A stretch of 64,000 nt of DNA from IMG/VR virus record IMGVR_UViG_2537561978_000005, one strand, 5' to 3'. Origin of the DNA: a virus. Its lineage: Duplodnaviria > Heunggongvirae > Uroviricota > Caudoviricetes. Positions 7,309-14,161 of this stretch are shown one piece after another. The position numbers and the translations under genes are program-made. The notes under the pieces were generated by a model that was not told the origin of the DNA, did not search any database, and saw only the letters and a list, made by a program, of their open reading frames with translations. The number at the start of each line of letters is the position of its first letter. Positions within the stretch are counted from its first letter, which is position 1.

Positions 7309-7749
7309 ATGAATAACATGGCAACGAAAGAGCTTTTTAAGTTCCGTCCCAAATACAAAGCTCACAAAAAAAATGGAACCACGGTCATCATTACGGATGA
7401 CAACGGCGTGATGATTAATCTTACCGGGAGCGTAACTATTTCTGCTGGTGGCATCACCACCCAGCAAGAAGAAATCGACCTTGAAGCAGCCGACTTTTCA
7501 GACGCGCTGATGTGGCTGAAGGAAGGCAAGAAAGTTGCTCGACGCGGGTGGAACGGCGAAAACCAATTCTGCTGGCTGGTTCCTGAAGGACAGTACCCGG
7601 CACGAATGGAAGCCATTAAGGGATATTTCCCCGGCGACCTCGTTCCGTATGGTGCTTATTTCGCCTTAAAAAATGCACAAGGTGTAGTTGTTCCGTGGGT
7701 GCCTTCAGTTGGCGACCTGCTGGCCTGTGACTGGTTTGTTGTGGAGTGA
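7309..7749 (+). CDS. small protein with a DUF2829-like module (family recalled to include Thoeris anti-defence Tad2); unverified
   Basis: 146 aa; ALMWLKEGKKVARRGW ... VPSVGDLLACDWFVVE; same module at C-terminus of 23238..24179 product. Confidence 0.45.
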   Translation: MNNMATKELFKFRPKYKAHKKNGTTVIITDDNGVMINLTGSVTISAGGITTQQEEIDLEAADFSDALMWLKEGKKVARRGWNGENQFCWLVPEGQYPARMEAIKGYFPGDLVPYGAYFALKNAQGVVVPWVPSVGDLLACDWFVVE

Positions 7750-8523: not shown

Positions 8524-9607
8524 GAGCAATATTTATAAAGATCCGCGCTGGCTGTCGCTGGTGGAGAAATATAAAGACAATTGGGTACTGGCAGCAAAAG
8601 AATTGTTTGATATTGATTTAAGCCACCAGCAACAACAAATTGTTGAAGCTATACAGCCCAATAATGCAAAAGCTACTGTCACCACTCCGTATGGGATCGG
8701 ACGACCGCAAGTGCTTGCTGTTATTAGTACCCTTTATACGATTATGTATCCTGATTCCCGGACAGTAATTGTTTATCCAAAATCAAATGTTTGCAAAAGA
8801 GGAATTGTTGCATATGTGTGGCAATGTTGGGAGGCATTGCTGAAAAAACAACCTTTTATCATTGAGTATTTTAAGGTCGGTGATAGCGGTCTGATGTTCA
8901 ATGAATTTTGGGGAATGTGCTTTTGTAACTTCCGCCTTAACTATGAAGATAGCATTGCAGGTCACTACGCCGACCATCTTTTATTCATTATTGTGGATTC
9001 CGCACATATCAGCGATCGGGCATACAGCATTGTGTGGGCAAGCATGACTAGTGGTGATTCACGCATATTGCTCACTTCAATTCCGTCACCAGAGGAAATA
9101 GGCTTTTTTTATGATTCACATCATGGACGTGCTTTAGCTGAAGATAATCCGAGTGGTGTATATAAAGCCATTAAGCTGAGTGCGGAGGATTCACCATTTA
9201 TTACCCAAGAATATCTTGATCATTTTGCCGAAAGGTATGGCGGGCGAAATAGTGATGACTATCGTCGTATGATTCTTGGTGAGTTCCCTGGTATTAGGGA
9301 GGCTGTTCTTGAATCAGATATGCCGAAGACAATGCGCTTTTCGATGCCTGATGGTAGTGAATGGACAATACCATTACGAGTGATAGCCCGGCATCATGCG
9401 CAGCACCACGCCAAAAAACATGGCGTCACGACATTAGAATGGTTGAAATCGCACACCATTCCACTCTTCACTGCAGATCACAATGCTATCGTTGAGTGGG
9501 CAAAAACAATTCCGTGGGAGAATGTCGCTGAATACGCCCACATGCTAAAACCGCCGAAAGACAGGCAAGAAATTAGCTGGCTGACAGCAGAAAAAATCAT
9601 TGAGTGA
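8513..9607 (+). CDS. terminase large-subunit paralogue, ATPase-domain only, with degenerate Walker motifs
   Basis: 364 aa from ATG 8513 (AGGAAG RBS); clear homology to PacB N-terminal domain (DPRW, SHQQQQI, YFYDSHH, YGGR) but Walker A TPYGIGRP and Walker B FIIVDSA; no nuclease domain. Confidence 0.6.
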   Translation: MATKSNIYKDPRWLSLVEKYKDNWVLAAKELFDIDLSHQQQQIVEAIQPNNAKATVTTPYGIGRPQVLAVISTLYTIMYPDSRTVIVYPKSNVCKRGIVAYVWQCWEALLKKQPFIIEYFKVGDSGLMFNEFWGMCFCNFRLNYEDSIAGHYADHLLFIIVDSAHISDRAYSIVWASMTSGDSRILLTSIPSPEEIGFFYDSHHGRALAEDNPSGVYKAIKLSAEDSPFITQEYLDHFAERYGGRNSDDYRRMILGEFPGIREAVLESDMPKTMRFSMPDGSEWTIPLRVIARHHAQHHAKKHGVTTLEWLKSHTIPLFTADHNAIVEWAKTIPWENVAEYAHMLKPPKDRQEISWLTAEKIIE

Positions 9608-9612
9608 TAGTA

Positions 9613-9642
9613 AGAAGCCCGCCTGGTTGAGCGGGCTTCTTT
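9613..9642. terminator. bidirectional intrinsic terminator GAAGCCCGC-loop-GCGGGCTTC + TTTT
   Basis: 9-bp stem between convergent genes (8513..9607 and doc). Confidence 0.6.
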
Positions 9643-10023
9643 TCAAATATTGGAACCATATAGTTCACGTAGTTTTTTCGCTACTGAAGATACGGGGATT
9701 TCACCAGTTGCAGCCCCCACTGCAAGCTCCACCAGCACGGGATCATCATATACCTGTATACCGTTACGGCGTAGAAATAGCAGCGCACTGTTTAGCGCGG
9801 TACGCTTATTGGCATCATTGAATATATGCCCTCTCGCCGTAGCCACCAGGTAGGTGGCGGAGACTTCGAAAAGGTCGGTGATCTCTTCGTAGGCAACTCT
9901 GGCCTGAACTCTCCCGATAATGGCCTCTGCCCTACCCGGATCTGACATTCCCGGCAGGCCGCCGTAGCGGCTTATATTCGCATCATGAAGCGCAATAAGT
10001 TCTTCCGGTGATATATGCCTCAT
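9643..10023 (-). CDS. doc: Doc toxin (death on curing; Fic-family kinase)
   Basis: 126 aa nearly identical to recalled P1 Doc ([40 protein letters not shown]...). Confidence 0.95.
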
Positions 10024-10250
10024 TATCGGTTAACCAGTTCCTTGTTGGTGGAGTCCAGGGTGTCAAACAGGGATGCAAATTCGGCATCCAGCGCCGCTTT
10101 TTTGTAGGCTTCAAAAGTAGCCTTGCTGACAATTACTGCTGGCTCACGGCCTCTGCGGGTGATTTCAACCTCTTCCCCGGCTTCAACATTGTTGAGCACT
10201 TCAGAAAGGTTGCCGCGCGCGGTACGGAAGTTAATGGATTGCATAAACAC
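10023..10250 (-). CDS. phd: Phd antitoxin (prevent host death)
   Basis: matches recalled P1 Phd ([32 protein letters not shown]...); stop overlaps doc start (TAATG); start may be the 2nd Met (10244). Confidence 0.95.
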
Positions 10251-10352
10251 CTCGTGTGCTCGTTATGTGTACGCAATTATAGGTTTTAATGATGCTGAAT
10301 ACCACTTCTTGGTGCCTTAAATCCTCGAGATGCAGTCTTGCAATTGCTGGGA

Positions 10353-10775
10353 TTAAGCAGAATAAGTGGTTGGAATTCTGAGCAGTAATCCAATCTTGGC
10401 TATGTGCTCATATGGCAGCTCTCCGGTTTTACCATCATGTATCGAGGCTATCAGATTCAATTCTTGCGCCGCTTTACGAATTTCAGTTTCTGATGGAACA
10501 AGGCGAAAACCGATGTGTAACATTTTGATATAGAAAGGTAATAGTTCGTACTTCACCCGTAACTGTGCTGCCGCATCTTTCAAATCATGGATGATTTCTT
10601 GTTTTAAGTCAGAGCGGGGATTCGATAGCTTTGCTTGGTTAGACAATAACAGATGCGATATTTCCCCCAACTGTTCCTTGAATGAAATGTAAGACTCAAC
10701 CCCCTTGATGATGAGTCGACCTAGGACAAAAACGCTTACTCCAGTGACAACAGTGACAAAAGCAGACGAACTCAT
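10353..10775 (-). CDS. hypothetical membrane-anchored protein (AT-rich cargo gene between humD and phd)
   Basis: 140 aa with N-terminal hydrophobic helix (FVTVVTGVSVFVLGRLII); locally AT-rich. Confidence 0.5.
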   Translation of the reverse strand: MSSSAFVTVVTGVSVFVLGRLIIKGVESYISFKEQLGEISHLLLSNQAKLSNPRSDLKQEIIHDLKDAAAQLRVKYELLPFYIKMLHIGFRLVPSETEIRKAAQELNLIASIHDGKTGELPYEHIAKIGLLLRIPTTYSA

Positions 10776-10909
10776 TCGCGTACCTAAAAAGAGAATTATA
10801 ACCTCATCTTATCTTCAAGTGAGTAACCGCGTCTAATGGGAGGAATCATTTAAATGGCCAGGGCGATATAGATCCAGTCATGCCTCTCTATGGTTTCTCT
10901 GAAAACAAA

Positions 10910-11299
10910 TCATATAGCAGGACTATCATCAAATTCACCGCCCCTGGCGTCATTGATAATGTGGGTGATCACACCAAAAACAGCATTACTACCCGTGTAA
11001 CCATCGTCATCTACTGGTAACGCCTCTTTCTTCCCGGTGCTTAAATCCTCCAGGTGCTGGCGCGGATACTTCCGGTATCTTTTTACGCGATATTCTCCCT
11101 CCATAGCGCACACAAGCAGCGAACCATCAACTGGAGTAAGCGAAGAATCAACCACCAGCAAAGCACCCTGCAATATTCCCTCACGGTGATGGCTGTCTGC
11201 CGCCCGCATGAAGTATGTCGCTGATGGATGCCTGATTAGTTGCTGATCAAGAGAAATTCGGCTTTCAACATAGTCCGCCGCAGGAGAAGGGAAGCCCAT
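10910..11299 (-). CDS. humD: UmuD'-like protein (HumD), S24 peptidase fold
   Basis: 129 aa; LLVVDSSLTPVDGSLLVCAMEGEYRVKRY resembles UmuD/LexA C-terminal domain. Confidence 0.7.
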   Translation of the reverse strand: MGFPSPAADYVESRISLDQQLIRHPSATYFMRAADSHHREGILQGALLVVDSSLTPVDGSLLVCAMEGEYRVKRYRKYPRQHLEDLSTGKKEALPVDDDGYTGSNAVFGVITHIINDARGGEFDDSPAI

Positions 11300-11546
11300 A
11301 GCGTTTTCACCTCAATAATACTGTTCATTTATACAGTATACATTAAAGAGACACATTTGGTGCAAACGCGTTACGTACATCAACCACCGCAGATGATTTT
11401 GTGCGCTTTGCTACTATTCATCACCAACGAATCAGCGTAACCTCGTTGCCCGGATTAGAGAAATGCAAAACGATAATAAAGGCTAAATCGAGGTAGAAAA
11501 CACATTGTTTAAGGCCACTAATTGTGACCTCAAAGGGGAGAGATGC

Positions 11547-12098
11547 TTATTGGCTATGGCTAAAAATCAAATGAGACACTTCATGTGGTTGTAGCTCGTC
11601 AAGATCCGGGGCCACAAAACCTTTTCCGAAAGACTTCACAAGTGATTCACCAGCCGCATCATTGTCACCTATTACGCGAAAGTCATACGGCAGCATCGCA
11701 AGTTGACGGCGTAATCCTGCGGAGAAAGTTGAACCTAACAGCGCCCACGAATTGCCGCCCGCGTTGTGTACAGCTGCGCTCTTAAAAATAGACTCAGTTA
11801 TCCATATTGGGCCATCTTTTAAAGGAAGATAGGTTCCCCAAAGTAACTGTCTGCCGTGTGATCGCGTGAAATACCGGGCCATCTTCGGATTGCTATGCTG
11901 CTTAGGTGCACCTGGTCTATATGTCTGATACCCAGCCAACATCCCATCAAACCTGTAGAGAGGGAATGTAACTACTCCTTCGCTTTCATCGATCCACTGT
12001 CTATATGGGTGTATATCATGGCGGTAGTTGCGAGTTAGCAAATGAGCTTCCAGCTTTCCAAATTTTGTCATATTCCGTTCTTCCTGCATACTGGGCAT
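11547..12098 (-). CDS. hypothetical protein with TOPRIM-like motifs
   Basis: 183 aa; IWITESIFKSAAV (conserved E) and RVIGDNDAAGE (DxD-AG) resemble TOPRIM signature; unverified. Confidence 0.4.
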   Translation of the reverse strand: MPSMQEERNMTKFGKLEAHLLTRNYRHDIHPYRQWIDESEGVVTFPLYRFDGMLAGYQTYRPGAPKQHSNPKMARYFTRSHGRQLLWGTYLPLKDGPIWITESIFKSAAVHNAGGNSWALLGSTFSAGLRRQLAMLPYDFRVIGDNDAAGESLVKSFGKGFVAPDLDELQPHEVSHLIFSHSQ

Positions 12099-12373
12099 GT
12101 GTTCTCTGTGAAATATGGGAAACTATTATCCAGCTCATCTACCCACTGTTTATGGTCGAAGCAGAAAAATATCTCCCACGGCATTCCATATTCTTCCATC
12201 CATAGGCGGATCTGCATTTCTATTGGAATCGGCGGTATTGCAGACACCATATCAACAGGATAACAGTTCAGACGACGTTCCAGTTCTTCTACTCTCTTCT
12301 GGAGATGAAATATCCGATCCAGATGCACACGCCGCTCCCGTGCCATTTTAAAATAAAGCTCGCCGGTCATCAT
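12068..12373 (-). CDS. small coiled-coil protein with C-terminal FPYF...CPxCR module
   Basis: 101 aa; paralogue of adjacent ORF. Confidence 0.45.
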   Translation of the reverse strand: MMTGELYFKMARERRVHLDRIFHLQKRVEELERRLNCYPVDMVSAIPPIPIEMQIRLWMEEYGMPWEIFFCFDHKQWVDELDNSFPYFTENTCPVCRKNGI

Positions 12374-12657
12374 TAACGCCTACATTCAGGGCAAGAGTTC
12401 CCTTCTGCAAAATAGGGGAAACTGCTATCAAGCTCATCACACCATCTGCGATGGTCGTAGCACCAAAACGCCTCCCACGGTGCACGGAAATACTTCATCC
12501 ACCAGGACACTCGATCAGGTATATCTGCTGGTGGCAGTTCTTCTGGCAATAATTTGCCTGATAATTCCCTTTCCGCCCGCGACAGCATTTTTTTGAGGCT
12601 CGCGTTCTCTTTTTCAAGCTCATCTACGCGCACCTGTAATTCAGCTTTCGTTGGCAT
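12373..12657 (-). CDS. small coiled-coil protein with C-terminal FPYF...CPxCR module (tandem paralogue)
   Basis: start set to internal Met (MPTKAELQ) to avoid overlap with upstream gene; WCDELDSSFPYFAEGNSCPECRR. Confidence 0.45.
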   Translation of the reverse strand: MPTKAELQVRVDELEKENASLKKMLSRAERELSGKLLPEELPPADIPDRVSWWMKYFRAPWEAFWCYDHRRWCDELDSSFPYFAEGNSCPECRR

Positions 12658-14161
12658 GGTCCACCTCATGCTTTTCAGCCACCAGCGGCAATAAAGCCCT
12701 GGCCATCTTATGAACCAATAGTGCATCAATAATGCCAAGCGTATGCCCCGGCTTAATGTTTAATGCCGCCTCAAGGCGACACCTTTCCAGGCCACTTTTC
12801 TCGGCTTGTTTATGATGATCTGGTGTAATAACGTCGCCCAAAACACGGCTAATTCTTTCTCGTAATTGCTGGGTGCCAGCACACTTGATCGCTGTATCGT
12901 GGAGACGGTTAACCAGTTCGCGATAAACATGCGGCTTAATGCGGATACGTTCACCGGTGACGCCCTTTCCTGGCGCTGGCACCGAACTATCCGGAATATC
13001 CGGATAGTTGCCTGCCAGTCTACGCAACACAGCCTTAACGGCCTCAATACGGTCATCATCGCAACTTTCCGCCGTATCTATGCGGTCGAGCATGATGATG
13101 GCGTTATCAATATCAGGATTGCCGGTCCACTCATTACCGCGATTGGATTCGGCAGACTGGTTACCAGATGCGGGTTGATTGTCGGCCTTACCCAGCCTGT
13201 CGTCGCTGCATGAATGCCCTTCCAGCCAGGCCAATGCTTGTCGCATGAAATACGCAATATGCTTGCCGTGGTAATCGTCTTCATCGATGTGAAAAGCGAT
13301 ACTGCGGATATATTCAATTGCGTTTTCAATGGCCTCCGGCGTTACCGGTGCTGACATATTTTGATTTTGGAGTGCCAAGACGCGGCTGGCATCCTCTACG
13401 CCTTTAACTGCATCTGCGCAGTAGTTATAGCGATTGCATTCCACTAACTTCTGCTTGAGATTTTCAATTGCTTGCGCGACATCAGCCTGTATTGGCGGAA
13501 CGGCTGTTTGCTCTCGAACGTCATTAGTCGCTATCGGTTCTGCTGCCAACTGACTGGCATATTTGTTAATGGTAACGATAAGCTCTTGCTCGGCCTCATC
13601 CAGACAATCACCGATACCTCGCCTGTCACCGTCAAAATCATCGAAATCGGCACGAACTCTGGCAAACTTCAGGATTGCTGACAACACCTCACTAGGAATT
13701 ACCGGATAGTTGGTTGACGTTTCCGCGATTTCCCGAAAATTATTGGTTGACGAATTCTTGCTTTCCCGAAAGTTTCCGGACTGAAGCATGGCGGTGCGGC
13801 AGGCGTTCCATATTTCGGCAGCAATATCGCGCTCGCTATCGGTTAATTTGTACGTGGAAACATAGCCAGAGAGCATTTCTACGTTTTCCGGAGTTGCTTC
13901 TTCCGGCACTACCGGCGCTGGCGGGGCGATGCGTCCAAGCAACTTATTTACCTCTTTCGCCATCGCGTCATATTTATCTAAATGGCGATTAGCTTCTAAG
14001 CAGACTCGGCGCATCTGATCTGAGTTAACTCGTTTAACTGGATCTGCTTCCAGCGATGCCAGCGCAATCCGTGCCAGTTCCATTTGTTCACCACGGGTAA
14101 GCCCGTTTTCAAGCGGATTTTTAATGAACAATTCAATACGTTCTTTGGTAATAGTGGTCAT
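12641..14161 (-). CDS. hypothetical modular protein
   Basis: 506 aa; segment HVYRELVNRLHDTAIKCAGTQQLRERI shared with 20749..21387 product. Confidence 0.6.
   Translation of the reverse strand: MTTITKERIELFIKNPLENGLTRGEQMELARIALASLEADPVKRVNSDQMRRVCLEANRHLDKYDAMAKEVNKLLGRIAPPAPVVPEEATPENVEMLSGYVSTYKLTDSERDIAAEIWNACRTAMLQSGNFRESKNSSTNNFREIAETSTNYPVIPSEVLSAILKFARVRADFDDFDGDRRGIGDCLDEAEQELIVTINKYASQLAAEPIATNDVREQTAVPPIQADVAQAIENLKQKLVECNRYNYCADAVKGVEDASRVLALQNQNMSAPVTPEAIENAIEYIRSIAFHIDEDDYHGKHIAYFMRQALAWLEGHSCSDDRLGKADNQPASGNQSAESNRGNEWTGNPDIDNAIIMLDRIDTAESCDDDRIEAVKAVLRRLAGNYPDIPDSSVPAPGKGVTGERIRIKPHVYRELVNRLHDTAIKCAGTQQLRERISRVLGDVITPDHHKQAEKSGLERCRLEAALNIKPGHTLGIIDALLVHKMARALLPLVAEKHEVDHANES

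Follow-up and report, generated by a model that had tools for sequence, protein, structure and literature searches.

Gene content of the humD to doc locus

The window (the whole stretch of viral DNA analysed here, 64,000 nucleotides) carries four consecutive genes on its minus strand in the order humD, ORF140, phd and doc. Over the stretch searched, positions 9600–11500, it is 100% identical to the Escherichia coli plasmid p95_MLI121 (NZ_CP117014.1), itself a D6-like phage-plasmid, and about 97% identical to phage D6; the latter similarity places it, as a D6-like element, in the P1 group of phage-plasmids. The genes of the locus, and the segment in which it departs from P1 and from the Salmonella plasmid pK91, are as follows.

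9643–10023, minus strand: doc toxin (Fic/DOC, E 3.1e-9)
10023–10244, minus strand: phd antitoxin (PhdYeFM, E 3.1e-13), downstream co-directional neighbour of ORF140, outside the ORF140 module
10282–10919: D6-type segment, 638 bp (45 bp in P1, 50 bp in pK91)
10353–10775, minus strand: ORF140 coding sequence, 140 aa, ATG start (D6 orf109, WP_000098854; phrog_7512)
10910–11299, minus strand: humD, UmuD'-like S24 peptidase (Peptidase_S24, E 4.4e-9), upstream and co-directional

The D6-type segment contains ORF140 with its upstream region, the final 10 bp of humD and the site corresponding to the -35 of the P1 phd promoter (Pphd). A sequence-only reading of the window had pointed to a 140-aa ORF at 10353–10775 that separates humD from phd-doc, and both its coordinates and its description of the ORF were correct.

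ORF140 belongs to a catalogued protein family

The ORF140 protein is identical or nearly identical to D6 orf109 (YP_009914786; WP_000098854), which is annotated as a hypothetical protein both in D6 and in RefSeq. It matches the phrog_7512 profile with an E value of 1.2e-77, residues 1–140 falling on profile positions 1–141 of 141, and the same profile was matched by all 74 diverse relatives tested. A family profile built from ten relatives was searched against 1.84 billion cluster representatives and recovered 1001 of them at E≤1e-3, of which 225 reached E≤1e-10. The best 150 matches were mostly 130–160 aa in length and the majority aligned nearly full-length. Pairwise dN/dS among five enterobacterial alleles (51–74% protein identity) was 0.11–0.36, with values of 0.20–0.36 for pairs involving the D6-type allele versus 0.11–0.22 among the other alleles. 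ORF140 is a genuine gene and not a chance ORF.

Beyond this PHROG, the protein had no match in Pfam or NCBIfam, nor to the PADLOC-DB v2.0.0 models even at E≤10. A Pfam scan of the 74 diverse relatives gave three spurious single matches only, from which no family could be assigned. The family profile found no relative among PDB sequences (best E 0.015, a Mediator subunit), a Foldseek comparison of the structural model with viral structures gave nothing below E 0.75, and Rfam over window positions 9000–12500 returned sub-threshold noise only. In literature searches by accession, PHROG number and D6 gene name, nothing of relevance came up. ORF140 is an accessory gene module of a temperate element, listed in databases as a hypothetical protein and within a PHROG, and it is therefore not a new kind of system.

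Three modules downstream of humD

P1 has humD directly next to phd, as the sequence-only reading had it, the two coding sequences being 72 bp apart; P7 and SJ46 show the same adjacency, and all three lack the ORF140 gene. Homology between the window and P1 covers 9653–10281 (93.5%) and 10920–11450 (94.4%), and the 638 bp at 10282–10919 stand in place of the 45 bp in P1. A total of 1433 plasmid records match the region and the gene is present here in 34 of them; among 26 phage records, it is found here in D6 alone (two GenBank records). Related elements do not, then, show it as a conserved core gene with no compositional anomaly, the finding that the sequence-only reading had named as contrary to its own. 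The same counts give no support to ORF140 as a third component of phd-doc, which it adjoins only in those 34 records; phd-doc occurs without the gene in about 97% of the matching plasmids.

The sequence-only reading had the gene inserted inside a conserved humD-phd-doc cluster. This view had to be abandoned, because phd-doc is mobile, is missing from close relatives of the window and is joined elsewhere to a different humD allele. More than half of the plasmid matches (from 60 records sampled evenly among the 1433) consist of phd-doc only, without humD, and end at window position 10281; many of these phd-doc-only matches are conjugative plasmids. The end of the match coincides with a promoter element.

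10276–10281, minus strand: Pphd -10 hexamer TATAAT, sharp upstream boundary of the mobile phd-doc cassette

Judged from where the matches end, phd-doc is itself a mobile cassette with its upstream boundary at window position 10281. As the P1-type Pphd -35 region is replaced here by the end of the ORF140 segment, the autoregulation of phd-doc and the strength of its promoter may differ in this element. A cassette boundary directly 5' of the -10 hexamer recurs in hundreds of unrelated plasmids.

A D6-like sublineage (loci L009–L011) has no phd-doc in a backbone 93–97% identical to the window, which makes phd-doc an indel relative to these relatives. In these loci humD and a 139-aa homologue of ORF140 form one contiguous, co-diverged block (70% nucleotide identity over 1066 bp). 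Behind this block come a terminator hairpin and then the common backbone, whose homology resumes at window position 9622, just past the hairpin that follows doc (see below). In pK91, the diverged humD allele is joined directly to phd-doc, and the sequence of the junction is that of P1. The humD-ORF140 junction, for its part, is recognisably homologous in both alleles. From these alignments, humD, the ORF140 gene and phd-doc are best described as three modules that recombine independently downstream of humD. Insertion versus deletion relative to P1 was also considered by parsimony; since either humD allele may be accompanied by the gene or lack it, and all module combinations exist, the direction of change cannot be called. 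The corrected picture of the region downstream of humD in P1/D6-type phage-plasmids is that of a three-module recombination spot, with no foreign insert in a conserved cluster.

The description of the gene as AT-rich stands in part. ORF140 has a GC content of 41.8% and the segment 10282–10909 of 41.7%, against 50.0–50.9% in humD, phd and doc. Measured against the whole element (mean 46.5%, sd 4.4% in 423-bp windows), however, ORF140 lies at the 14th percentile, about one sd below the mean. The visible contrast arises from neighbours that are GC-richer than average combined with a gene that is moderately AT-richer, and the composition of ORF140 is ordinary for the element, not an anomaly.

Distribution and genomic contexts of the family

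Most homologues are found on conjugative plasmids. In PLSDB, a homologue occurs in 346 plasmids, of which 264 are conjugative; the D6-type allele accounts for only about 32 (30 records with ≥99% protein identity, 2 with 95–99%). Phage D6 and these about 32 plasmids, which come from E. coli and Salmonella, have the D6-type frame intact and at full length. Complete E. coli genomes contain a homologue in 333 of 5426 cases (about 6%), and 336 of the 340 copies are on plasmids. Named hosts of the family are Escherichia, Salmonella, Klebsiella, Atlantibacter, Pantoea and Shewanella, together with Marinobacter, Arsukibacterium, Bowmanella, Chromohalobacter and Litchfieldella, and it was also found in metagenome-assembled genomes of Burkholderiales, KSB1, Syntrophorhabdus, Nitrospirae and Deltaproteobacteria.

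The contexts are diverse. An allele with 74% identity is carried by IncFII-RepA phage-plasmids of about 48 kb, flanked by a small HTH gene and a HigB/HigA-like pair; a 66% allele lies between sitABCD and sopAB in IncF plasmids; and a 51% allele, on IncX1 and IncF plasmids, has DinQ-like type I toxins, a resolvase and partition genes in its vicinity. In Atlantibacter lambdoid prophages a 43% relative, encoded on the opposite strand, separates the replication genes from the nin region, and a Shewanella prophage has a copy next to a PIN-domain gene, in the interval from the early-left genes to a CI-like repressor. Some copies have ordinary chromosomal neighbours, and no mobile element is visible around them.

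Loci from Arsukibacterium, Marinobacter and Bowmanella (L036–L039), retrieved by a related-locus search with a 21-sequence alignment of the family, share only about 481–548 bp of DNA, which hold the gene. Directly 3' of it, L036–L038 (Arsukibacterium and Marinobacter) have an imperfect hairpin of 84–88 nt, TTATAAC...GTTATA. It was detected with a relaxed attC pattern (TTATAAC/GTTATA core sites), the strict pattern matching nothing in L036 and L037, and the relaxed scan did not find an attC-like hairpin in L039 (Bowmanella). These marine copies sit in arrays of small co-oriented ORFs. Hairpin, array and confined homology are the signature of integron-like gene cassettes, and we regard the marine copies as putative cassettes of this kind. 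The window copy has no attC-like hairpin 3' of ORF140. At about 4977–5525 of L036–L039, the cassettes have 80–98% DNA identity and entirely different flanking ORFs, and two Arsukibacterium genomes have the 547-bp cassette alone in common at that position.

Neighbouring genes vary among these contexts and no neighbour recurs. As a candidate for a conserved partner we considered the neighbours of about 500 aa seen in IncF/IncX plasmids and in a marine contig, which proved unrelated to each other; a defence-island context was likewise rejected, ten neighbouring proteins from other contexts having no PADLOC match. To judge from its unrelated backbones, ORF140 is an autonomous, horizontally mobile single-gene module. 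The family is a clean example of the flow of an accessory gene through integron-like cassettes, plasmids, phage-plasmids and prophages.

Such a distribution could also be that of an element-maintenance or host-interaction factor unrelated to phages, which might, for example, lower the fitness cost of the plasmid, influence conjugative entry or act as a membrane toxin-like stabiliser. In E. coli the family is overwhelmingly plasmid-borne (336/340 copies), most carrier plasmids are conjugative (264/346), and the gene is often found beside partition genes, resolvases, phd-doc, HigB/HigA-like pairs or DinQ-like type I toxins, all of which would fit. We nevertheless consider this role unlikely. Integrated prophages and integron-like cassettes, for which plasmid upkeep and conjugation are irrelevant, also carry the family; no conserved antitoxin-like partner accompanies it; phd-doc does without the gene in about 97% of the matching plasmids; and purifying selection extends over a structured soluble domain of 117 residues, unlike small membrane toxins.

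Expression signals

The signals identified around the four genes are listed below.

9614–9639: GC-rich hairpin GAAGCCCGC-N8-GCGGGCTTC, between convergent doc and a 364-aa gene ending at 9607
10795–10800, minus strand: alternative -10, perfect TATAAT, 20 nt upstream of the ORF140 ATG, with a poor -35; D6-type allele only
10806–10835, minus strand: predicted promoter-like motif TAGACG-N18-TAAGAT (elements 10830–10835 and 10806–10811), about 30 nt upstream of the ORF140 ATG
11321–11336: LexA-box consensus CTGT-N8-ACAG, 21 nt upstream of the humD ATG, at the position annotated in P1

A strict promoter scan of 9500–11600 found nothing, and the promoter-like motif, with 8 of 12 consensus matches, is below the scan threshold. 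In the alignment of about 65 bp upstream of the gene, the pattern TAGAC(A/G/T)-N17/18-TA(A/G)GAT keeps its position in five backbones while its spacer has diverged, and an AGG ribosome-binding motif 7–10 nt before the ATG is kept across the five as well. No terminator-like site or stable hairpin was found between humD and ORF140 or between ORF140 and phd, and shuffled controls folded better than either spacer; elsewhere, copies of the gene are followed by hairpins. Going down the minus strand from humD, one first meets a terminator-like structure at 9614–9639, which looks like a bidirectional terminator. D6-like relatives without phd-doc have a different hairpin at this position.

The LexA-box consensus is a single site in the 64-kb window, where 0.69 would be expected by chance, so that the count is not above chance; with it, SOS-induced read-through from the humD promoter could extend into ORF140. 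The promoter-like motif, the uninterrupted spacers and the LexA box together suggest that ORF140 is probably expressed both alone and by SOS read-through. A weak sigma-70-type promoter of its own would probably be active during plasmid-prophage carriage, read-through from the LexA-controlled humD promoter would probably also reach the gene in this element, and the ORF140 transcript would probably continue into phd-doc.

With such an arrangement, ORF140 might be an SOS-linked partner of humD, produced along with HumD upon DNA damage or prophage induction, that acts at the membrane in the SOS response or the lytic switch, e.g. by modulating division, lysis timing or a membrane protease, and not on other phages. 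The two genes co-diverge as the 1066-bp block of 70% identity in a backbone of 93–97%, their junction is homologous in both alleles, no terminator separates them, and the only LexA-box consensus of the window lies upstream of humD. These points of linkage are, however, peculiar to a small part of the family: humD is not nearby in most members (IncF/IncX plasmids, the IncFII-RepA phage-plasmid, lambdoid prophages and cassettes), and only about 32 of the 346 plasmid copies are the humD-linked D6 allele. Moreover, P1 and pK91 retain humD without the ORF140 gene, which also has a promoter-like motif of its own, and a dedicated SOS partnership seems to us quite improbable.

A predicted bitopic inner-membrane protein

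The membrane segment of ORF140 occupies the following codons.

10707–10763, minus strand: codons 5–23, single transmembrane helix, the most conserved part of the family, with R at position 20 in the window allele

Residues 5–23 are the sole hydrophobic segment of the protein (mean Kyte-Doolittle 2.19), and the AlphaFold2 model of the D6-type allele, which is confident, contains a continuous helix over residues 4–45, both in line with the N-terminal hydrophobic helix of the sequence-only reading. ORF140 is predicted to be a bitopic inner-membrane protein made up of a membrane anchor and a compact four-helix bundle. In all 74 family members there are more K/R residues in the 15 positions after the helix than in the N-terminal tail (mean 2.65 versus 0.15, with a tail length of 3.5 residues). 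By the positive-inside rule this excess would place the bundle in the cytoplasm, so that the predicted topology has an uncharged tail of 3–4 residues facing outward and a cytoplasmic four-helix bundle. A cleavable signal peptide was ruled out, there being no charged n-region, and so was an i-spanin, given that the gene is not part of a lysis cassette and that the model is a compact bundle and not an extended coiled coil.

The helix and the stretch just after it are the best conserved parts of the family (T8, G12, V13, F16, Q20, K24 and P28). Such conservation of a membrane helix is unusual for a mere anchor and suggests an interaction surface. No catalytic signature (a conserved pattern of His, Asp, Cys or Ser) was seen in the family alignment. 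Of nine family-wide residues (G12, V13, Q20, P28, L44, P94, N107, L132 and Y138), seven are kept in the window allele. The two exceptions are the two most conserved positions of the family: the D6-type allele has R for Q at position 20 (Q in 95% of members) and S for P at position 28 (P in 99%), as well as a one-residue deletion before position 27, and the D6-type copy may have an altered or reduced function.

Taken further, these changes would make the gene a decaying or neutral passenger in this element, the family being perhaps functional elsewhere and the D6-type allele near loss. R20 and S28, the one-codon deletion, the higher dN/dS in comparisons that involve this allele and the dispensability of the gene in P1, P7 and pK91 all point that way, and the near identity of the D6-type copies to one another means that conservation among them carries no information. 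Yet the reading frame is full-length in D6 and in about 32 plasmids, the dN/dS of 0.20–0.36 is well below 1, the AlphaFold2 model of this very allele is confident, and the ribosome-binding site and promoter-like motif are retained. A mere passenger is hence something that we hold to be improbable.

One homologue (P0014, 231 aa) is fused after residue ~115 to about 90 further residues that look like the C-terminal end of a group II intron reverse transcriptase/maturase; the fusion suggests an intron insertion into a family member.

A possible role in phage exclusion or defence

ORF140 is a small single gene without a partner and has a promoter-like element of its own, its family is found in moron, plasmid-maintenance and integron-like cassette positions, and the protein possesses a conserved membrane helix and no catalytic residues, a combination typical of carriage-phase genes that benefit the host-element pair. 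When mobile-integron cassettes without assigned function were put through a functional screen, at least one third gave phage resistance; about one third of the phage-resistance cassettes had transmembrane helices, and one appears to block genome injection (preprint 10.1101/2024.07.02.601719). On this pattern and this screen we rank first, tentatively and from context, a carriage-phase membrane factor for phage exclusion or for abortive infection/defence. Confidence in the defence role is limited in that PADLOC gave no match, the bundle is predicted to face the cytoplasm and this allele has lost Q20 and P28. Further points against it are the ten neighbours without a PADLOC match, the family members with ordinary chromosomal neighbours and the low score of the promoter-like motif.

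Such a protein would benefit its carrier element and not phage morphogenesis; in the mechanism that we prefer, it would act at the inner membrane to shield the lysogen from phages that arrive. Through the conserved polar face of its helix (T8-G12-Q20) it might bind either further copies of itself or a host or phage membrane protein, the cytoplasmic bundle could serve as sensor or adaptor, and the outcome would be either a block to DNA entry or abortive membrane permeabilisation. Taking everything together, the best explanation is a mobile single-gene module encoding a bitopic inner-membrane protein that protects the lysogen against incoming phages, a reading that we hold as a possibility falling somewhat short of an even chance. 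More doubtful is the broader proposal that phrog_7512 as a whole is a new, very compact single-protein anti-phage system, made of the anchor and the cytoplasmic bundle without an enzymatic domain and circulating as one gene among element types across several phyla, in which the conserved helix would be the working part, either as an oligomeric pore or by blocking a membrane protein required for phage genome entry.

Small inner-membrane superinfection-exclusion proteins that act alone are known from several phages, among them T4 Imm, T4 Sp, P1 Sim and P22 SieA; Sp and Sim act in the periplasm. ORF140 resembles them in being a small, predicted inner-membrane protein of a phage or prophage encoded by a single gene. 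No homology to them was found, however, and its soluble domain is predicted to be cytoplasmic, in contrast to the periplasmic Sp and Sim.

Morons of temperate phages, such as HK97 gp15, lambda rexAB and lambda sieB, offer another comparison. ORF140 is likewise an additional gene, which relatives (P1, P7 and SJ46) lack at this junction, with its own promoter-like element and a GC content below that of its neighbours, and family members in prophages lie on the strand opposite to their neighbours or beside the repressor region. Against this, it has no sequence similarity or specific fold similarity to the named moron products, no terminator follows it, its composition is within the range of the element, and in E. 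coli phrog_7512 is mainly a plasmid gene. The moron-type insertion proposed by the sequence-only reading is therefore kept as to the mobile, moron-like single-gene module and given up as to the insertion into a conserved cluster.

With the small transmembrane phage-resistance integron cassettes (BRiCs, e.g. Deva and BrcWGS21; preprint 10.1101/2024.07.02.601719) the likeness, drawn by description, is in the marine members, which consist of the gene and an attC-like hairpin in about 547 bp. Their products are small and combine a membrane helix with the lack of any recognisable domain, which is also the case for about one third of BRiCs; the ORF140 copy of the window differs from them by having no attC-like hairpin. 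P1 phd-doc adjoins ORF140 here, is co-directional and probably shares its transcript, but it is an independent module and the phrog_7512 family is widespread without it.

The breadth of the family (about 6% of complete E. coli, several phyla and at least four mobile-element types), combined with its lack of annotation, makes it a sensible candidate for a defence screen. If the defence or exclusion role is true, this would be among the smallest such systems, present in about 6% of completely sequenced E. coli and almost always plasmid-borne; if there is no phenotype, it is an ordinary hypothetical accessory gene.

Other genes around the locus

On the plus strand at 7309–7749, the window encodes a protein of 146 aa whose domain resembles Thoeris anti-defence 2 (PF11195, E 5.9e-23), a candidate anti-defence gene of the D6-like backbone situated 2.6 kb from ORF140. 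The region upstream of humD (11300–12098, minus strand) is likewise unlike P1 and D6, so that both flanks of humD are variable. A 183-aa protein encoded there at 11547–12098, labelled "toprim domain-containing" in RefSeq and with no Pfam match at E≤1, occupies the position of lxr and hot in P1 and of a truncated hot in D6. Further upstream on the minus strand, 12068–12373 and 12373–12738 encode adjacent small proteins of 101 and 121 aa without a Pfam family. They have a common C-terminal motif, W...F.C.DH..W.DELD.SFPYF......CP.CR, and look like tandem paralogues with a zinc-ribbon-like end.
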